A stretch of DNA of 64,000 nucleotides, from the NCBI GenBank assembly GCA_964016885.1, contig OZ024743.1, forward strand, positions 341,434,001-341,498,000, in the 5' to 3' direction. This DNA comes from Eledone cirrhosa (Eukaryota). Below the pieces are notes generated by a model, which worked only from the letters and a program-made list of their open reading frames with translations, ran no database searches and was not told the origin of the DNA. The position numbers and the translations under genes were made by a program. Shown one piece after another: positions 33-62,155 of this stretch (position 1 is the first letter of the stretch; every line of letters starts with the position of its first letter).

Positions 33-1990
33 CAGTTGCATTTATCTTGCTTTATGTTCATACGAGTTATCACCAAGTCACAACCAGTGACCTCAAGAGA
101 CAACAAGGTCCGCCATGTTCAAGAAAGAACATACATATTCACACATGCATCTTTAGTGTTTAGACTTGTGATGTACTTATATTGACAGAATCTTCCTTAG
201 TATATGGGCAGTTCCCATTAGTACTATCTTTTGTATTTCTCCTATACGCGGGTTTCCTGGGATTTGCGATAAGTAATCATTAGACCCCTTAGGTATCATT
301 GCTAGAGCGCCTACAATCACTGGTATTGTTTTAGTTCTCAATTTCCACATTTTTCCAATTTGTATCTCCAGGTCCTTATACTTGCTCAATTTTTCAAATG
401 TTTTTATAGATACATTCTTGTCTATTGGAACAGACATATCAATTAGCAGGCATACCCTCTTTTGAAAGTCCTTCAATATTATATCAGGTCTATTTGCATC
501 TATTTTTCGGTCTGTTTGGATGCTAAAGTTCCACAAGATTGAGATGTGATCTTTTTCAAGTATGGGAGGTGGTTGATGCTCCCACCAATTCTTTTGATGG
601 GGCAGGTCAAAATGCTTACACATTATCCAATGTATGTATTGTGCAGCTCTGTCACGCCTGTTTAGGTATTCGGTTGGAGCTATAGGACTGCACATTGAAA
701 TTATATGGTCAATGGTCTCTGGTTGTTTTTTGCATACACGGCATAATGGGCTGCATCCATTTTTTATTATGTTGGCTTGGTAATTTTTTGTTGGCAGACA
801 CTGATCTTGTGCTGATATAATCAGTCCTTCAGTCTCCGATTTCAGTCCAGAGGATGCCAACCACTGATGGGTTAAAGTTTTGTCAACATCAGGATTGTTA
901 GCTCGCTCTGGGTATTTTCCATATAGAGGCTTTTCTTGCCATTTCTTAGCCAGTTTCTGTAGCAGGTCTTTCTTTGCAGTTACTTTTACCTGCTTTGCTT
1001 TTTCTGTGTTTTCCATTTCAGCAGTAAATGCGACTTCTGAAATGTGTAGTCCATTACTGTATCTTTGTGCATCTTTTGTAATGGAATATGATCTTTTGAT
1101 GCTTTCGTGTTTCAAAACGAGTTTGATCATCCAATCATGTGATTCCCTTAGATATGTAGATAATCCAATTGTTGCAGTTTTCAACGCAATGTCTAACTGG
1201 ATTAACCCACGTCCTCCTTCTTTTCTAGGGAGATATATTCTATCTATATCTGCCTGAGGGTGATGCATTCTGTGCATGGTTAAGAATTTTCGAATTTTTG
1301 TATCGAGCCTACGGATCTCTGTGCTTGACCAGTTGATGACATTGTAACTGTAGGTTACTACTGGTATGGAAAGCGTGTTTATGGCATCGATCCTATTCCT
1401 CGCATTCAATTCCGTTCTTAAGATCGCTCTTACTCTGCGGTAACATTCCTTCCTTATCCTTTCCCTCATTGTCGAGTGCTTGATTCCGTCTCCTTCACAA
1501 ACACCTAGATATTTGTAAGTTTTTTCTTGATCATGTTCTCTTATCACGTTCCCCCGATCAAGATTAATGTCTGAACTCTTCAGTAGCTTTCCTCTGGTGA
1601 ACGTTGCTTTGGCGCATTTATCTAGTCCAAACTCCATTTTAATGTCATCACTGAACTGCTTCACAGTCGATAATAGCCCTTGCAATTGTTCATCATTTTT
1701 TGCAAATTGTTTCAGGTCATCGATGTAGAACAGGTGATTAATGGTTTTGTCATAGACTTTATATCCATGTTTTGTTTCATTGAGCATTTTACTTAATGGT
1801 ATAAGAGCGATGCAGAATAAAAGCGGTGATAAAGAGTCACCCTGAAAAATTCCACAATTAATATTAACTTCTCCAGCTTCCATTGATTTTGTCTCACTAT
1901 TCAAAAGGAGTGTCGTTTTCCATGTCTTCATACTGAATGACAAAAACCTCCTGACAACGGGGGATATTTTGAAAATCTCTAAACATTTTT
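33..1990 (-). mobile_element. R4/Dong-like non-LTR retrotransposon (RT + CCHC + restriction-like endonuclease), 5'-truncated copy 1
   Basis: ORF 177..2093 has GIFQGDSLSP, HLFYIDDLK, GGRGL, CRVC..H..C and NRPDII..IDMSVP..K..KY (PD-D/ExK). The 3'UTR is at 33-176. (ATT)n flanks both sides. Confidence 0.92.
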
Positions 1991-2018
1991 CATTATTATT
2001 ATTATTATTATTATTATT

Positions 2019-5000
2019 ACAGTTGCATTTATCTTGCTTTATGTTCATACGAGTTATCACCAAGTCACAACCAGTGACCTCAAGAGACAACAAGGTCCGC
2101 CATGTTCAAGAAAGAACATACATATTCACACATGCATCTTTAGTGTTTAGACTTGTGATGTACTTATATTGACAGAATCTTCCTTAGTATATGGGCAGTT
2201 CCCATTAGTACTATCTTTTAGTACCACTGGTATTGTTTTAGTTCTCAATTTCCACATTTTTCCAATTTCTATCTCCAGGTCCTTATACTTGCTCAATTTT
2301 TCAAATGTTTTTATAGATACATTCTTGTCTATTGGAACAGGCATATCAATTAGCAGGCATACCCTCTTTTTGAAGTCCTTCAATATTATATCAGGTCTAT
2401 TTGCATCTATTTTTCGGTCTGTTTGGATGCTAAAGTTCCACAAGATTGAGATGTGATCATTTTCAAGTATGGGAGGTGGTTGATGCTCCCACCAATTCTT
2501 TTGATGGGGCAGGTCAAAATGCTTACACATTATCCAATGTATGTATTGTGCAGCTCTGTCATGCCTGTTTAGGTATTCGGTTGGAGCTATAGGACTGCAC
2601 ATTGAAATTATATGGTCAATGGTCTCTGGTTGTTTTTTGAATTACACGGCATAATGGGCTGCACCCATTTTTGATTATGTTGGCTTGGTAATTTTTTGTT
2701 GGCAGACACTGATCTTGTGCCGATATAATCAGTCCTTCAGTCTCCGATTTCAGTCCAGAGGATGCCAACCACTGATGGGTTAAAGTTTTGTCAACATCAG
2801 GATTGTTAGCTCGCTCTGGGTATTTTCCATACAGAGGCTTTTCTTGCCATTTCTTAGCCAGTTTCTGTAGCAGTTCTTTCTTTGCAGTTACTTTTACCTG
2901 CTTTGCTTTTTCTGTGTTTTCCATTTCAGCAGTAAATGGGACTTCTGAAATTTGTAGTCCGTTACTGTATCTTTGTGCATATTTTGTAATGGAATATGAT
3001 CTTTTGATGCTTTCGTGTTTCAAAACGAGTTTGATCATCCAATCATGTGATTCCCTTAGATATGTAGATAATCCAATTGTTGCAGTTTTCAACGCAAATA
3101 GTTTTAGGTCATCGATGTAGAACAGGTGATTAATGGTTTTGTCATAGACTTTATATCCATGTTTTGTTTCATTGAGCATTTTACTTAATGGTATAAGTGC
3201 GATGCAGAATAAAAGCGGTGATAAAGAGTCACCCTGAAAAATTCCACAATTAATATTAACTTCTCCAGCTTCCAGTGATTTTGTTTCACTATTCAAAAGG
3301 AGTGTCGTTTTCCATGTCTTCATACTGAATGACAAAAACCTCCTGACATCGGGGGATACTTTGAAAATCTCTAAATATTTTTCAATCCAACTGTGTGGCA
3401 AACTATCAAATGCTTTTTTATAATCTATCCAAGCAATCGACAGATTTTTGTGTCTATTATGACAATCTTCCAGTATCATTTTGTTAACCAGAAGCTGATC
3501 CTTACAGCCATATGAGCCTCGTTTACACCCTTTATGCTCAATGGGAAATAGATCGTTTGTTATCAGGTGGTCATATGTGTATTCAGTTAGGACTGATGTT
3601 AAAATTTTATACATTGTGGTCAAGCAAGTTATCGGTCTGTAATTTTTGGGATTGTTTGTCTCATCATTCTTCGGAAGCAGGAATGTAATGCCGTTAACTA
3701 GCCATGAAGGTATCTTTTCTGGCTCCTTAACTATTTCATTGTAAAGTTGGGCTAACAGCTCATGAGACTCTGTGAAGGCATTTATACAAAAGTTTTGTAT
3801 TTTGTCTTTTCCTGGGGATTTCCATTTGCTGGTTTTTCTTAGAGCCAAGCGCAACTGTTCAACTGTTATATTTTCCCATGTTTGTTCCTCAAGGTGAGCT
3901 GTATCTTTCATTTGTCTGTCTATCAATGGGGCATGTATGTTATGAACTTTTTCTTCGGCCCAGATCTTTTGCCAGAATTCTTGCACTTCCTCCTTGGGTG
4001 GTATTGATTTAGCAGTTATTGTGGACTTACCAATTTTTCTGTAGAAGTTTCTTTGGTTGTTTTTGAACATATTATTGTCCTTATAGAATCTAGATCGTTT
4101 TTCAAAGCGCCTTATACGAGCAGCTTTGGCCGACACTTTTTGCTTGATTATTTCTATCAGCATGTCTATGTCACATGTTGATTTTATACTGTACTTTTTT
4201 TTCAATTTTCTAAGTTTAGTTTGTTTAACATGTTCACCTACTTTATAGTTTGTTAACATTTCTATGTCAGATCGGAGAAGGTTTATTTGGCGATTGATGT
4301 TCTCTTGCCAAGTAGATTTCTTGTGGGAATTCCTTTGTTTTTTCATCTTCACTCCACATAAGTGAGTGGTGACTTTAGCCGATGCATAATAGAGATGATT
4401 TATATCAGTAATGTTTAGTTTGTTTGTGATGATAATGTTTTTGAGAATTATGTTAGTCTTGTGTATTATCTTTTGGTTCTGTTTGGAGTTCTGGATCTTA
4501 GGGAGGGTGTCTCGTTCCCCCATGTCAGATTCTTTCATTTTCATCCATTCGATCATAATTTCATCCTTCAAGTTGGCAAGTTCGTTCTCATTCATTTCTT
4601 TATCATTTACGATCTCATTATTTTCATTTGGAGTTTCATCCTGAGCATGCACTCCCTCCACTTTTTCGATCCTTTCTTTAATTTGTTCTGTTGCCAGTGA
4701 TTTCGCCCCAAACCTGGGATTCGAAGTGTTACAGTTTACCTCGTTTTCACTGACACATGTTTCATTTTCCCTTCGCTGACTTTGTGCTAATAGCTTGATC
4801 TGATCAATTTCTATCTCAGTTAGTAACTTTTTTCTTACAATATTTCTTCGTATATTGGCTAGTTTTTTTACTGTCAATATAGCCTCTGTTTTCGGGATGT
4901 TTTTTTCCAGTTGATATATGTCTGTTCTGTATTCGATGTATTTGATGGGTAGTACATGGCAGTGTAGAAAGCCTCAAGGACTTCTTTATTATCTTCCCTT
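2019..5000 (-). mobile_element. R4/Dong-like LINE, longer copy 2 with internal deletions and frameshift
   Basis: ORFs 2616..4877 (KSPGKD, NYRPITCL, WIDYKKAFDS, QGDSLSP, YIDD) and 2147..2602 (RLE). The 3'UTR is the same as copy 1. It is bounded by (ATT)n at ~1991-2018 and ~5005-5051. Confidence 0.92.
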
Positions 5001-7278: not shown

Positions 7279-10200
7279 ATGACCTCACTCAGAATAGGCA
7301 GCATAAATGCGCGTGGCTTGGGGTCGTCATGGAAGCAGGGCCACCTGCTCAACGACCTCAGGTCACTAAACATAGATGTAGTGGCCATCAGCGAGACCAG
7401 AATCTCCGAAGCACAGTCTTTCGCACCGATCTTCGGCGGCTACGATGTGTACGCATCTCCCAACCGTCCGGGATCGGGGGGAGGAGTTGCTGTGCTTTTT
7501 CGGAGAGGTTTGGATCTTGCCATACAGGCCATCTTCCTGGACCCAGAAGGTAAGTTGGTAGGGAAGGAGGGTGCAAGAGTCACACCAACCTGCTCAGACG
7601 TTTTGAACTGTCTGACAGGTACCGAATGGATTTCCCGAATGTACCAATGTGGACTTGGACAAATCGCATAGGGTCATCCAGATCATATCTAGATAGAGTA
7701 TTTTGTAGGGAAATAGATAGGTCTAGCATAGGCTGTCCACAATTCAAGATAGTCAGCTACACGGACCACAAATTCGTGATCTGTGTGCTTGACTTAGATA
7801 GGCTTCATAGACGAGGACCCGGCTACTGGAAGTTAAACGCGTCCTTACCAGCGCGCAAGGCCTACAGAGACCGGATTAGCGAACTAGTTAAGCGGGCGTT
7901 GACGGGGGCCATCGTCAACAACAAGTGGTGGTTTGCTCTGAAAAGAGCAATTAGAATAGAGTCCATTAGGTTTAGTAAGACTTTAGCAATAGAGAAAAAT
8001 AGAGCAGAGGGAGAATTAGTTAGAAAATTAGATGAGGTGCTTAGCAAAGGCATCGCGACCGACGTACTTGCGGCGAAATTGGCCCTTGACCAATTATTCA
8101 ATGCAAAGCACGAAGGCTGCGTTGTCAGAGCTAGGGTGCGTGCTCTCAGACACGAGGGGACGAAAGCCGTTCAATGGGCCCGAGTGGCGGAGGCGCGTCG
8201 TGGCCACGATCCGGTCTTTGGTGGACAACGACGGGCGCATGCTACTCGATCCCGGGCAAATGTGTGAAGCTTTTCAGCGACACTTCGCTCAACTGTTCGG
8301 GGGCAGTGGCGGGCCGGATCGAGGGATGGACTTTAGTGTCTACCTCGACGGACTGCCGCGGCTTTCGGCCACTGAGGCGGAGTGTTGCGAAAATCCGATA
8401 ACAGGAGCGGTGGCGCTGCTGAGAAAGGATCCGAACAAGGGGGATAACATAGATAATTTTAGGCCCATAACTCTGCTAAACACAGAGTTCAAGATTTTGG
8501 CCAGGGTGCTAGCAAAGAGGTTGGCGCTTGTCGTTGGTGGTCTGGTGGGAGAGGCACAGACATGCGCCATTCCCGACAGATCCATCCACGACAACCTCCA
8601 CCTCATGCGATACATCGTAGAGAGGGTAGCTAGGGAACCTGGCACGGGTGGGTCTTTGATCAATTTAGATCAGTCGAAAGCCTTCGATAGGGCCGACCAT
8701 CGTTACCTAGCGGCAGTCCTGAGGGCGGCTGGCTTTGGGCCCGTCTTCAGAGGCTGGATCGCTGCCATGCACAGCGACATCTGCTCTGTAGTGAGAGTGA
8801 ACGGTCACCTTTCGGAACCGTTCAACATCATGCGCTCGGTCCGCCAAGGATGTCCCCTCTCGTCCCTATTGTACGTATTGACTCTCGAGCCATTACTGCA
8901 CAAACTGGAGACGTTGAGGGGGGTCCCGCGCGAACTAGGATGCGGAAGATCCGTGTCAGCATATGCCGACGATGTCACGTATTGGTGTCGAACGCCAAAC
9001 ACATCGAGGCGATCGGCACTACACTAAGAGAATACGAAGCGGTGACAGGAGCAATGATCAACCAGGAAAAGTCAGTGGGCCTGCAGCTCGGCACCTGGAG
9101 AGGCAGGTCCATGCCGTCCAACAGCGTCGTCGGGCGCTGGACGGACGGACCGGTTAAATTGCTAGGGGTCTGGTTCGGTCCAGACCTCCAGACGGACAAA
9201 AACTGGGACGAGGTGACGAGCAGGGTGGCTTCTCTCATCCAGAAATGGGCCGAGAGGAAGCTATCCCTGAAAGGTCGAGCGGAGGTGGCGAATGCGTACA
9301 TCGCATCCGTCATCTACTACCGCCTGACCGTCGTACCTTGTCCGAAGCCCCGCCTGACTGCGCTGGAGCGTTTTCTCTTTCGCTTCTTGTGGAAGGGACG
9401 AGCTCCGATGGTCAGGCGGTCCATCTGCTGTCAACACCCGCTACGTGGAGGGCTGGGCATGCCGTGGCTGATGATGCGCAGACACGCGCTCAGGCTACGA
9501 CATCTCCACCTCTTCCTCGACGGTGATTAGGTGTGGTCGCCGTTTGCAAGACACGTTTTTCCCCAGCTCGTCTCCTTGACGGAGCTGCAGTCCTGGGTCA
9601 AGCGGAGACCGAGAGGGAGCGCTTGGAGACTGGAATGTCTTCAGGCGCTCACAGCCCTCGACCAATCGGGCAATGTGATCGGTGGAAACTCCACCTTGGC
9701 GTTCTATAGGGGATTAGTGGAGGGGAAGAGCGACGACGTACTTGGAGAAACTCTAGGCGTCGACGAAAATCAACTAGCCAATCTCTTCGGAAGGACTTTC
9801 GGGCCGGGGCCTATGGACAACTTCCAGAAATCCCTGGCCTGGCAGTGCTACCGAGGAGCTTTGCCAGTTCGGGATAAACTCTACAGGCATGGAGGTGCCG
9901 TTACCCGGGCATGTCTGAGATGCGCGCAGGGCGACGAAACCGTCCTGCACGTACTCGTCGAGTGTCCGAGCATTGCTGACTTGTGGGTTTATGTCGAACA
10001 CCTGCTGTCACGTGTAGGACGGATCCAGCTATCAGCTGAGTCCATCGTGAGGATTGCCCCGCCCCCTTCCTTTAGCCTGGAAGGGCAGGCAGTTTTTATC
10101 TGTCTGGTGGCCATGGCGAAAGAGATAGTATGGTGGACACGTTTGAAAGGGCTGAAGACGAGCACTTACCTCTTCGGTGATGCCCTGATTAACTTTTTCA

Positions 10201-10328
10201 AATTTCATTTGAAAAGGAAAATCAGGGTAGAGAGGGAAGTGCTCTCTTCCCAGCATTTTGTTGAAAGATGGGTGAGAGAAGCAAGTATGGCCCGAATGAA
10301 TGGGCCTTCTCTGAGTATGTGTCTGTAA
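7279..10328 (+). pseudogene. Tx1-like ORF2 (APE endonuclease + reverse transcriptase + zinc finger), fragmented
   Basis: Motifs SINARGL, ISET, SYLDRVF, TDHK, GPGYWKLN, NFRPITLLN, LDQSKAFDR, VRQGCPLS, AYADDV, GGLG and CLRC..ET..H..C are spread over successive ORFs. Confidence 0.92.
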
Positions 10329-17948: not shown

Positions 17949-17996
17949 ACTGAAATATATATTTCGGTGATAACAAGTATGACCTCATCAGGCAGT
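17949..17996 (-). ncRNA. Decayed hammerhead ribozyme (same family as 46207-46261)
   Basis: ACTGC-CTGATGA-GGT..ACC-GAAATATATAT..CAGT. Confidence 0.55.
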
Positions 17997-21300: not shown

Positions 21301-22563
<1,263 letters not shown>

Positions 22564-35430: not shown

Positions 35431-35830
35431 TACAAACGAAACGAAATTTAATTTCGTTTCGTTATTTGTTTTTATCGTCTCCGTTGAACCGGTACGTACT
35501 CACACTCTATGCAAATTAGTCTGCCCACTACTAATTTTCATAGAAAAAGCATATAACGATATGTGCTTTTACGATTCTCCAGAAAGGCCGGAAGATAGGT
35601 AAATATTGCGGATGAGTTGTAACAACAACGAAACTAGTTCAATATTCCTTGTCTGGCTTTCTGGAGAATAGAGGAAAGGTGTTTCCTCAAAAACCAGTAT
35701 GACTCTAAAAACCGGTTTGTCTGTGTGTTTACATACAGAATAGCTGGACACTCACAGTAAAGTGACCAGTGAAAAACTTGGTACATCTACATATGTATAC
35801 GTGTGTGTATTCATATGCATACTAGTATTT
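35430..35830 (+). repeat. Distant member of the 422-bp family: octamer 35509, TATA-like 35551, hammerhead 35602-35646
   Basis: AATATTG-CGGATGA-GTTGT-AACA-ACAAC-GAAACTAGTT-CAATATT. The core carries two substitutions. Confidence 0.65.
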
Positions 35831-38020: not shown

Positions 38021-38049
<29 letters not shown>

Positions 38050-38312
38050 GGAAAAAATGAAACGATATTTCATTTCCCACTCTTAGTACGGCTGTTACTT
38101 AAATATAAGTATGTACACGTACATACATATATGTATACCGACGTACAGTAGTATGTATATATATATATACATACATGCACACATATATATATGCACGTAT
38201 GGATTCACCGAACATTTATTATAATGCTCGGTGTGTTTGTAAACAAACATCCCGTATTAAGCCGTAGTGTCTAGCAACCACCGTTGCTCGTTTGTTCAAC
38301 ACTGACAAAGGA

Positions 38313-38355
38313 ACGCTGTACTAGTTTCAAGCTTGTTAGCTATCGTCAGCAACGT
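38313..38355 (-). ncRNA. Minimal type I hammerhead ribozyme of the array (also at 38735, 39157, 39579, 40003, 40425, 40847, 41269)
   Basis: ACGTTG-CTGACGA-TAGCT-AACA-AGCTT-GAAACTAGTA-CAGCGT gives a 6-bp stem I, palindromic ACTAGT and a GUA triplet. Confidence 0.85.
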
Positions 38356-38381
38356 ATACCTTCCTGCCAGATTGTTGAACG

Positions 38382-38429
38382 TATATACTTACCTTATGCA
38401 TATTAACGGCTGAGTAGCCCAATTTGCAT
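38382..38429 (-). promoter_or_regulatory. Putative snRNA-type promoter (octamer - PSE-like - TATA) in each array unit
   Basis: ATGCAAAT-34 nt-TATATA ends ~26 nt before hammerhead stem I. The spacing is conserved at 22043-22090 and 35509-35556. Confidence 0.5.
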
Positions 38430-41400
38430 ATCGAGTGGGTTAATCGGCCGGGTGCACCGAAAACGATAAACGGAAAAAATGAAACGATATTTCATTTCCC
38501 ACTCTTAGTACGGCTGTTACTTAAATATAAGTATGTACACGTACATACATATATGTATACCGACGTACAGTAGTATGTATATATATATATACATACATGC
38601 ACACATATATATATGCACGTATGGATTCACCGAACATTTATTATAATGCTCGGTGTGTTTGTAAACAAACATCCCGTATTAAGCCGTAGTGTCTAGCAAC
38701 CACCGTTGTTCGTTTGTTCAACACTGACAAAGGAACGCTGTACTAGTTTCAAGCTTGTTAGCTATCGTCAGCAACGTATACCTTCCTGCCAGATTGTTGA
38801 ACGTATATACTTACCTTATGCATATTAACGGCTGAGTAGCCCAATTTGCATATCGAGTGGGTTAATCGGCCGGGTGCACCGAAAACGATAAACGGAAAAA
38901 ATGAAACGATATTTCATTTCCCACTCTTAGTACGGCTGTTACTTAAATATAAGTATGTACACGTACATACATATATGTATACCGACGTACAGTAGTATGT
39001 ATATATATATATACATACATGCACACATATATATATGCACGTATGGATTCACCGAACATTTATTATAATGCTCGGTGTGTTTGTAAACAAACATCCCGTA
39101 TTAAGCCGTAGTGTCTAGCAACCACCGTTGCTCGTTTGTTCAACACTGACAAAGGAACGCTGTACTAGTTTCAAGCTTGTTAGCTATCGTCAGCAACGTA
39201 TACCTTCCTGCCAGATTGTTGAACGTATATACTTACCTTATGCATATTAACGGCTGAGTAGCCCAATTTGCATATCGAGTGGGTTAATCGGCCGGGTGCA
39301 CCGAAAACGATAAACGGAAAAAATGAAACGATATTTCATTTCCCACTCTTAGTACGGCTGTTACTTAAATATAAGTATGTACACGTACATACATATATGT
39401 ATACCGACGTACAGTAGTATGTATATATATATATACATACATGCACACATATATATATGCACGTATGGATTCACCGAACATTTATTATAATGCTCGGTGT
39501 GTTTGTAAACAAACATCCCGTATTAAGCCGTAGTGTCTAGCAACCACCGTTGCTCGTTTGTTCAACACTGACAAAGGAACGCTGTACTAGTTTCAAGCTT
39601 GTTAGCTATCGTCAGCAACGTATACCTTCCTGCCAGATTGTTGAACGTATATACTTACCTTATGCATATTAACGGCTGAGTAGCCCAATTTGCATATCGA
39701 GTGGTTTAATCGGCCGGGTGCACCGAAAACGATAAACGGAAAAAATGAAACGATATTTCATTTCCCACTCTTAGTACGGCTGTTACTTAAATATAAGTAT
39801 GTACACGTACATACATATATGTATACCGACGTACAGTAGTATGTATATATATATATATACATACATGCACACATATATATATGCACGTATGGATTCACCG
39901 AACATTTATTATAATGCTCGGTGTGTTTGTAAACAAACATCCCGTATTAAGCCGTAGTGTCTAGCAACCACCGTTGCTCGTTTGTTCAACACTGACAAAG
40001 GAACGCTGTACTAGTTTCAAGCTTGTTAGCTATCGTCAGCAACGTATACCTTCCTGCCAGATTGTTGAACGTATATACTTACCTTATGCATATTAACGGC
40101 TGAGTAGCCCAATTTGCATATCGAGTGGGTTAATCGGCCGGGTGCACCGAAAACGATAAACGGAAAAAATGAAACGATATTTCATTTCCCACTCTTAGTA
40201 CGGCTGTTACTTAAATATAAGTATGTACACGTACATACATATATGTATACCGACGTACAGTAGTATGTATATATATATATACATACATGCACACATATAT
40301 ATATGCACGTATGGATTCACCGAACATTTATTATAATGCTCGGTGTGTTTGTAAACAAACATCCCGTATTAAGCCGTAGTGTCTAGCAACCACCGTTGCT
40401 CGTTTGTTCAACACTGACAAAGGAACGCTGTACTAGTTTCAAGCTTGTTAGCTATCGTCAGCAACGTATACCTTCCTGCCAGATTGTTGAACGTATATAC
40501 TTACCTTATGCATATTAACGGCTGAGTAGCCCAATTTGCATATCGAGTGGGTTAATCGGCCGGGTGCACCGAAAACGATAAACGGAAAAAATGAAACGAT
40601 ATTTCATTTCCCACTCTTAGTACGGCTGTTACTTAAATATAAGTATGTACACGTACATACATATATGTATACCGACGTACAGTAGTATGTATATATATAT
40701 ATACATACATGCACACATATATATATGCACGTATGGATTCACCGAACATTTATTATAATGCTCGGTGTGTTTGTAAACAAACATCCCGTATTAAGCCGTA
40801 GTGTCTAGCAACCACCGTTGCTCGTTTGTTCAACACTGACAAAGGAACGCTGTACTAGTTTCAAGCTTGTTAGCTATCGTCAGCAACGTATACCTTCCTG
40901 CCAGATTGTTGAACGTATATACTTACCTTATGCATATTAACGGCTGAGTAGCCCAATTTGCATATCGAGTGGGTTAATCGGCCGGGTGCACCGAAAACGA
41001 TAAACGGAAAAAATGAAACGATATTTCATTTCCCACTCTTAGTACGGCTGTTACTTAAATATAAGTATGTACACGTACATACATATATGTATACCGACGT
41101 ACAGTAGTATGTATATATATATATACATACATGCACACATATATATATGCACGTATGGATTCACCGAACATTTATTATAATGCTCGGTGTGTTTGTAAAC
41201 AAACATCCCGTATTAAGCCGTAGTGTCTAGCAACCACCGTTGCTCGTTTGTTCAACACTGACAAAGGAACGCTGTACTAGTTTCAAGCTTGTTAGCTATC
41301 GTCAGCAACGTATACCTTCCTGCCAGATTGTTGAACGTATATACTTACCTTATGCATATTAACGGCTGAGTAGCCCAATTTGCATATCGAGTGGGTTAAT

Positions 41401-41556
41401 CGGCCGGGTGCACCGAAAACGATAAACGGAAAAAATGAAACGATATTTCATTTCCCACTCTTAGTACGGCTGTTACTTAAATATAAGTATGTACACGTAC
41501 ATACATATATGTATACCGACGTACAGTAGTATGTATATATATATATACATATGTGT

Positions 41557-61344: not shown

Positions 61345-61865
61345 ATATATAATATCTGGCGACATACGGTATGTTTATAAATAAACATTTTGAAAGCCTT
61401 CCGCTATGTATTTGAAAACTGATAGCATAGCACCATCTAGTGTGTTCCGCCAGAAGCTAAGTACGGCATCTAGTGTTGATGACGTCATCATTTCTGACTT
61501 TGGTCGTTATCAAACTAGTACTGCCCACCGCGTAGTCCTGGAACACAATATAAGCTAAAACATAGTATAGCATATTTACATTGACGCATATTTACATTGA
61601 CTGATCAGCCAAATTTGCATATAGATTTACGGCTGGCTCAGCCGCAAATAAAGTAGGGGCATTAACACTAACATAGTTTTTGAAATAAGTAAAGTTGTAT
61701 ATCTGGCGACACATGGTATGTTTATAAATAAACATATTGAAAGCCTTCCGCTATGAACTTGAAAACAGATAGCAGAGCGCCATCTGGTGTGTTCCACCAG
61801 AAGCTAAGTACGGGCAGTCAGTGATGATGACGTCATCATTTCCGACTTAGGTCGTTTTAAACTAT
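61345..61865 (+). repeat. Old ~347-bp partial tandem with octamer and decayed hammerhead
   Basis: ~61350-61520 is repeated at ~61698-61864. It shows GGGCAG...TGATGACG/CGTTATCA-AACTAGTA-CTGCCC and ATTTGCAT at 61613. Confidence 0.5.
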
Positions 61866-62155
61866 ATATATATATATATATAAGCAAAGGGATATTTAAT
61901 TTGTTGGTAATTCAACAAAGATATATATTTATAACAGATTGGAAGCACTCGACAGTTTTCTGGAGTATAAGAACAATGATATTAATAAATGAAAACTATA
62001 TTTACAAAACCATATTTATTCTATTATATATATTTCAAGGGTACCAAAACTTTGGTACCCTTGAGACCATAACGATTCAAGTCTATCCAGGTAAAACTTG
62101 AACCGTTAAGGTCTCATTCCTGGATATGTCAATATTTATAAAACAAACTTTGTAT

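Follow-up and report, generated by a model that had tools for sequence, protein, structure and literature searches.

Introduction

Internal promoters are already known from hammerhead repeats, with two precedents from the 1990s, newt satellite 2 and the schistosome repeats. The newt satellite 2 promoter reportedly consists of an octamer and a PSE, with no TATA box. The Schistosoma Sm-alpha and Sj-alpha repeats have an internal tRNA-type promoter.

Newt satellite 2 is a hammerhead tandem repeat with an internal promoter of the snRNA type, reported to be used by Pol II (Coats, Zhang and Epstein 1994, as described in PMC2220036 and PMC6765202, partial texts). The SINE-like hammerhead repeats Sm-alpha and Sj-alpha are apparently transcribed by Pol III; cleavage leaves their promoter 3'-terminal in the unit, which makes tandem copies necessary, each unit being driven by the one upstream (PMC6765202, partial text). 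Non-LTR retrozymes have type I hammerheads, dispersed and tandem AT-rich units of 170-400 nt, thousands of copies, a self-paired monomer and circular RNA, and axolotl ribozymes have a weak palindromic stem III and a U-U pair at the base of stem II (PMC7229834, partial text). No promoter is named for retrozymes in the partial texts of PMC7229834, where 'promoter' refers to T7 only, and bioRxiv 10.64898/2026.07.22.740005. In Penelope-like elements reverse transcription begins at two internal sites with a tail between them, uses AT-rich targets and does not need ribozyme cleavage (PMC11167929). A 5-bp change of the spacer between PSE and TATA box abolishes U6 transcription by Pol III (PMC7949045, partial text), and spacing is conserved in insects (PMC1761439, partial text).

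Here a module of octamer box, middle element and TATA box was analysed in a hammerhead repeat of Eledone cirrhosa, in a stretch of 64,000 nucleotides (the window; assembly GCA_964016885.1, contig OZ024743.1, positions 341,434,001 to 341,498,000). The repeats resemble the non-LTR retrozymes and axolotl ribozymes in all the features listed above except unit length, which is 422-502 nt, and circular RNA, the Eledone repeats being known here from DNA. They resemble newt satellite 2 in being a hammerhead tandem repeat with snRNA-type elements, but the upstream box is that of host Pol III genes, there is a TATA box, and the layout is shared by at least four divergent families of one genome. The module has the position in the cleaved unit that the schistosome promoters have, with the inheritance logic that had been proposed originally, whereas its elements belong to the upstream snRNA type. 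The host's type-3 Pol III promoters, considered next to the compact human H1 promoter (PMC7949045, partial text), differ in spacing (45-47, against 40-42 in families A, B and D), and, unlike those host promoters, the module is located inside the propagated RNA. Two fixed start sites of reverse transcription, AT-rich or (TA)n targets, 5' truncation, and tandem and inverted insertions are shared with Penelope-like elements (PMC11167929; PMC8557442, partial text), from which the repeats differ in having no ORF in the unit, a tail of 56-69 nt instead of 30-40, and arms of inverted insertions that differ in the site used (11/11 pairs with full assignment). A literature search, mostly of non-subscription papers, gave no paper on a promoter of this kind from invertebrate retrozymes, nor on the present layout. 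As read from the sequence, what is new is that elements of the host itself are matched, that the make-up is mixed and that the module is retained across four to five families.

Materials and methods

Repeat abundance was counted by pattern search of the 3.0-Gb genome. Host Pol III promoters were taken from the best-scoring U6 genes (loci L001 and L002 and the array on contig C19), the best of the 8 U6atac hits read, the single RNase MRP hit and the two best tRNA-Sec hits; the +1 of the MRP gene was taken from the Rfam boundary. Twenty U6 loci were inspected, with the box in place in 5, displaced by an insertion in 1 and absent from 14; these 14, many of them 5'-damaged or repeat-flanked, were excluded as presumed pseudogenes. 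PWMs were built from 7 and 14 promoters. Insertion ends were obtained from 101 BLAST runs, of which 75 were kept (ribozyme or octamer included, and 3' end inside the fetched DNA) and 26 were dropped.

Results and discussion

The repeat unit, its ribozyme and its copies

The predicted layout was found in the last unit of the array, as ATGCAAAT at 38429-38422 (-), 33 nt with CTCAGCCGTTAAT (38414-38402), and GTATATA at 38388-38382. Stem I begins at 38355, 26 nt past the TATA box, in agreement with the ~26 nt given originally. Features of the window are collected in Table 1. The module is present in 8/8 units of the 422-bp array (further octamer starts at 38851, 39273, 39695, 40119, 40541, 40963 and 41385), and the copies claimed for the array units, 22043(+), 21688(-) and 35509(+) were all recovered, the last one diverged. 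Ribozyme cores are mutated in the copies at 22043 (CTGATCA) and 35509 (CGGATGA). The octamer has 16 matches in the window (5.3 expected): 11 are the copies just named, 4 sit in other repeats without a module, and 1 (61620, -) belongs to a hammerhead family that the original prediction missed.

Table 1. Positions of the module, ribozyme, array and related copies in the window
Feature	Position	Strand	Remarks
Type I hammerhead, extended stem I	38294..38380	-	Core CUGACGA 38349-38343; U-U at stem II base
Octamer box, 12-mer TATGCAAATT(G/A)G	38419..38430	-	Element of host U6, U6atac, MRP and tRNA-Sec genes; also 5' arm of hairpin
Middle element CTCAGCCGTTAAT	38402..38414	-	TCAG core, positioned like the host U1/U2/U5 element; match weak; 3' arm of hairpin
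TATA box GTATATAC	38381..38388	-	41 nt from octamer start (host Pol III genes: 45-47)
Predicted transcription start	38357	-	By the host rule, 31 nt after TATA G
T6 run, possible Pol III terminator	38052..38057	-	~45 nt ahead of next unit's octamer; copied RNA probably continues beyond
Tail bounded by two fixed insertion 3' ends	38044..38100	-	Site 1 ~38100; site 2 = 38044, array/(AT)n junction
Tandem array, family A1, 8.3 units x 422 bp	38044..41551	-	
Module, family A2 copy	21641..21688	-	Ribozyme core intact (21600); left arm of head-to-head inverted insertion
Module, family A2 copy	22043..22090	+	Ribozyme G8 changed to C; right arm of the inverted insertion shared with 21641..21688
Module, family B copy	35509..35556	+	Spacing 40; no TCAG; mutated ribozyme core
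Octamer and strong U1/U2/U5-type element ATCAGTCAATGT	61595..61621	-	Degenerate hammerhead family E; this copy lacks a clear TATA box

The hammerhead of the array unit (minus strand) has stem I ACGTTG/CAGCGT, a stem II of four pairs above a U-U mismatch, then GAAA, a palindromic stem III of minimal length, and the triplet GUA, after which a cut is predicted between 38319 and 38318. The fold of the ribozyme region was better than that of 200/200 shuffles (z -3.8). At gathering level Rfam gave no hammerhead in the window, and none in the A1 unit even at E up to 10; the family B unit matched Hammerhead_HH9 with E 1.1e-5, under the gathering score. No ORF of at least 180 aa lies within the array. 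The family A repeat has the features of a non-LTR retrozyme that were looked for in the DNA, namely a type I core with three stems and short, non-coding, dispersed tandem units in high copy number.

Genome-wide, 36,037 matches were obtained with the ribozyme pattern (control 0) and 31,211 with the module pattern (reversed control 0). The module is not found in every family member, as had been claimed: among 56 distinct copies chosen by ribozyme alone from the first 14 Mb of contig C1, only 35 have the exact octamer in place. The other 21, read by eye, are 5'-truncated or rearranged (12), changed at single points (8, 4 of them in one array) or shifted by a deletion (1).

Promoters of host small RNA genes

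Host U6, U6atac, RNase MRP and tRNA-Sec genes have a 12-mer, TATGCAAAT(T/G)AG, at -76 to -79 and GTATA at -31/-32. The box can be written TATG(C/G)(A/T)AAT(T/G)AG, and its spacing to the TATA box is 45-47 in 10/10 of the host Pol III promoters listed. In all 17 host U1, U2 and U5 genes shown, AATTA lies at -88 to -91 and (T/C)CA(G/A)T at -55 to -58; they also have a TATA-like box at about -32, and a 3' box of the AAAATCAGAC type follows downstream. By our own count (T/C)CA(G/A)T, the U1/U2/U5 element, stands 25-26 nt before the TATA G in several of these genes. The Pol III box was not found in host U1/U2/U5 genes, the best score being at most 2.2 bits among 14 non-redundant promoters.

Both layouts are unusual, with the octamer box directly at -77 in the Pol III genes and, in the Pol II genes, with AATTA at -89 and TCAGT at -56 ahead of a TATA-like box at about -32. 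Long tandem arrays are formed by U6 (C19:31.78-31.84 Mb), U2 (C3:307.35-307.45 Mb), U1 (C2:180.97-180.99 Mb) and U5 (C9:32.79-32.83 Mb), and several copies of the U6 array are split by an insertion between TATA box and gene (L007, L008). More host-type modules of octamer and TATA box (L003:152, L009:148, L016:1922; L222-L224) precede sequence without an Rfam match, and one of them recurs in the U6 array spacer; these may be unannotated Pol III genes or promoter duplicates.

Comparison of the module with host elements

On the Pol III box the 12-mer scores 15.3 bits in A1 and 19.9 bits in A2 and B (p <=7e-6 per position), and representatives of five hammerhead families score 11-20 bits (p <=2.3e-5 per position, 220 kb of genomic background). 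Over the 7 nt that follow the 12-mer, agreement with the host box is poor. The TATA box, GTATATAC in family A and GCATATAA in family B, fits host GTATA(T/A)A. The alignment to host snRNA upstream regions that had been proposed gave matches for the 12-mer and the TATA box and none for a U6-type PSE. CTCAGCCGTTAAT, which had been named as that PSE, was rejected in this role because host Pol III genes have no counterpart; it is instead a weak match to the U1/U2/U5 element, and it pairs with the octamer in an RNA hairpin.

TCAG in family A lies 25 nt before the TATA G, where the U1/U2/U5 element lies in host genes (p 0.005 and 0.015, a placement noticed after the fact). The score of the element in family A is 1.1 and -1.3 bits, against a leave-one-out host range of 3.6-19.8. 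The full element is absent from the family B and C representatives, B having no TCAG either, and AATTA was not seen by eye 33 nt before the TCAG element in the repeat representatives. The best scores for an snRNA 3' box in the units are -0.1 (A1), 0.9 (A2) and 6.1 bits (B), against 8-20 bits in the host; its absence from A units fits read-through. One family D copy has a 3' box score of 14.5 bits and a second D copy has no such box.

The spacing from octamer to TATA box is 41 in A, 40 in B, 42 in D and 46 in C, so that the host 45-47 is matched only by C. It bears on the possibility that the module is a U6-type (type 3) Pol III promoter, most of whose transcripts, of ~300 nt, would stop at T6 while leaky read-through gives multimers. 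The octamer box occurs only at Pol III genes among the host genes examined, the TATA box is identical to theirs, the predicted +1 of A1, like that of host genes, is a purine preceded by T, and the exact host spacing is found in family C. The schistosome hammerhead repeats, too, are apparently Pol III products (PMC6765202, partial text). The TATA box does not reveal the polymerase, because a TATA-like box is found in host Pol II snRNA genes as well, and the spacing in A and B falls 5-6 nt short of that in the ten host Pol III promoters, which makes a plain U6/7SK-type promoter doubtful for family A. Taken with the insertion ends described below, a Pol III promoter of this type is considered unlikely.

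Its spacing keeps the module out of the host U6-type class, and it is not clearly of the host U1 type, the element being weak and AATTA and the 3' box absent. The original view that the repeat carries its own snRNA-type promoter is therefore upheld in that octamer and TATA box match host type-3 Pol III genes and the octamer is kept in unrelated families; middle element and spacing do not support it. A more specific proposal, possible but somewhat doubtful, is that retrozymes have built a chimeric snRNA promoter unlike that of any host gene examined, in which a Pol III octamer is combined with a Pol II proximal element and a TATA box and a spacing shift of half a helical turn would let Pol II read through T runs and so produce the multimers required by the ribozyme.

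The octamer in other hammerhead families

A pattern with host spacing gave 211 genome matches (control 1). Thirty of these loci were inspected, of which 3 are family A variants, 1 is an apparent chance match and the remainder are mostly family C, an older hammerhead family with the host Pol III geometry (spacing 46; L123-L151, L227-L241). TCAG alone is found 25-26 nt before the TATA-like box in 26/42 C-like loci, and a T6-7 run lies ~15 nt past the family C cut. Family D (among the loci listed, L192-L221) is a hammerhead with intact core and a triplicated 33-nt octamer unit, followed by a full U1/U2/U5 element at octamer+16 and GCATATA at 42. The element at octamer+16 scores 13-16 bits in D and E, in the same place as TCAG in A; in families A and D the element of this type stands 25-26 nt before the TATA G. 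Family E (window 61354-61870, minus strand) is a degenerate tandem hammerhead with a period of ~347 and a longer palindromic stem III, and the pattern derived from its element at 61620 gave 3,169 genome matches, up to two per copy, those displayed belonging to family D. When whole units were compared by blastn (A-C, A-D, A-E, B-C, C-E and D-E), the octamer(-TCAG) block was the only or best match.

Since families C, D and E were found via the octamer, these comparisons establish that the box recurs with hammerheads and do not give the share of hammerhead families that carry it. In an arbitrary 220 kb plus the window (284 kb) no further octamer-bearing hammerhead family was found, the minimal hammerheads there being without the octamer. 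Five minimal hammerheads of the Penelope-like terminal-repeat kind lie in the window, at 17991(-), 31213(+), 37900(+), 46256(-) and 62161(+); none has an upstream octamer, and several end in GAAATATATA.

The octamer might also work alone, as a POU-factor enhancer that raises dispersed Pol II initiation, with no SNAPc-type promoter and an incidental TATA-like box. The triplicated octamer unit of family D is enhancer-like, the spacing to the TATA box varies by family (40, 41, 42, 46), and between A and B only the 12-mer clearly exceeds flank conservation. Such an enhancer is nevertheless very improbable, as G(T/C)ATATA recurs 40-46 nt after the octamer in A, B, C and D despite unrelated spacers, and D and E carry the full U1/U2/U5 element.

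Conservation and RNA hairpin

When the A1, A2 and B units are aligned three ways, identity is 92% in the 12-mer, 68% in the ribozyme, 62% in the TATA box, 54% in the middle element and 42-57% in the flanks. That the motifs are better conserved than their flanks is thus borne out between A and B for the 12-mer, which is clearly above them, but the middle element and the TATA box are little or no better. In family A, 0/9 columns of TATGCAAAT have a variant shared by three loci, against ~20% in the flanks (22/27 loci reaching the upstream flank; alone not significant). Three family A loci share a change of the TATA box to GTAAATAC. Conservation across families is read as selection on master elements and says nothing of the activity of this array.

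A hairpin over the module has z -2.0 in A1, -2.1 in A2 and -4.4 in B, with compensating changes; no significant fold was found in two host promoters or in family D, and in family C the octamer lies in the loop and 3' arm of a different, weak hairpin (z -1.6). As judged from these predicted folds, the hairpin is a second reason for keeping part of the module. It is also the basis of a further alternative, in which the family A module is a relic of an ancestral promoter that persists mainly as a hairpin in the circular RNA, and transcripts of the copies come from host genes by read-through. The compensated hairpin, which is missing from host promoters, the degenerate middle element and the short spacing are in keeping with a relic, and newt satellite 2 is also read-through transcribed on lampbrush loops (PMC2114352, partial text). 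However, the octamer arm is constant while its partner arm varies, with a C-U mismatch left in A2 and B, which points to a constraint at the DNA level. The 12-mer is found in differing fold contexts in A/B, C and D, so that sequence and not structure was retained, and the 31,211 exact module matches are in young families. A relic of this kind is given a low probability.

Insertion ends and polymerase

Among the 75 runs kept, 58 have their end no more than 3 nt from one of two homologous sites, and in 50 of these 58 it lies against (AT)n. Site 2 lies 8 nt beyond the T6/T7 run and 37 nt ahead of the next octamer. The two fixed 3' ends are likely priming sites and would be a signature of Penelope-like reverse transcription. 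Insertion of linear cut monomers primed at their end was rejected, as only 1/75 runs ends at the ribozyme cut. The 5' ends are evenly spread and were rejected as marks of the start site (0/74 within 3 nt of the predicted +1). Nineteen head-to-head inverted insertions were found, 11 with one arm per site, 8 with one arm unassigned and 0 with both arms at the same site, which suggests that the two strands of one target break were primed at different template sites. Family D copies also end against (AT)n, apparently at two places ~40 nt apart, and D-type sequence was seen upstream of a U6atac-like copy (L055).

A T run precedes the next module in A1 (T6, ~45 nt before the octamer), A2 (T7) and B (T5); in A, B and D a run of T5-T7 lies 40-70 nt ahead of it, as a Pol III terminator might. 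Significance of this placement was rejected, the runs being expected from composition: by an estimate from base composition, about one in two AT-rich units of 420 nt should contain T5. A Pol III promoter is further opposed by the insertion ends located past the T run and by family C, in which termination at the T6-7 run past the cut would leave almost no RNA. Because the likely priming sites are past the T run, the copied template probably extended beyond it; it may have been circular or a multimer left uncut. Stem I also takes in sequence from upstream of the predicted start, the paired sequences differing between A and B, and this pairing needs RNA that came through the promoter. Since the copied RNA passes T6 and the 3' box is absent, Pol II or a mixed Pol II/Pol III use is likelier than pure Pol III, and transcription probably reads through T6, by Pol II.

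From sequence comparison the module is judged to be real and probably functional. The reading given somewhat better than even chances is that it is an internal snRNA-type promoter within each unit of a non-autonomous hammerhead retroelement, a non-LTR retrozyme. Its parts would be the octamer box as the host U6-type upstream element, a degenerate U1/U2-type element and the TATA box. A POU/Oct factor would bind the 12-mer, SNAPc would bind the TCAG element weakly, and TBP would bind the TATA box. Transcription would start ~31 nt past the TATA G, at 38357, a position that is contained in the range 38355-38362 of the original prediction. The transcript would pass T6 and, having no snRNA 3' box, run on through the unit that follows. 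Such multimers would be cut into 422-nt monomers by the hammerhead, which probably works as a dimer, and the monomers could be circularised. These monomers would hold the promoter of the next unit, as had been foreseen; the segment from cut to cut does contain the next module. A Penelope-like reverse transcriptase would then begin at either of the two internal sites and insert copies into (AT)n. With site 2 placed 37 nt before the octamer, a full turn would put the promoter at the front of the new copy.

If the chimeric promoter is true, then, with newt satellite 2 as the other case, animal retrozymes would as a general rule have captured the snRNA promoter machinery, and families A to D would form a natural series on how spacing selects the polymerase. 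With the elements named from host genes, the start predicted to the base and four families that differ in the features that choose the polymerase, retrozyme transcription is directly testable. The host U6-type and U1-type elements are now defined and would be useful for small-RNA expression tools. The paired 3' ends tie hammerhead repeats to Penelope-type reverse transcription. No GIY-YIG domain was found in the ORFs of the window. Pieces of reverse transcriptase ORFs (RVT_1, zf-RVT) of retrotransposons lie at window positions 177-4973(-) and 8032-10328(+).
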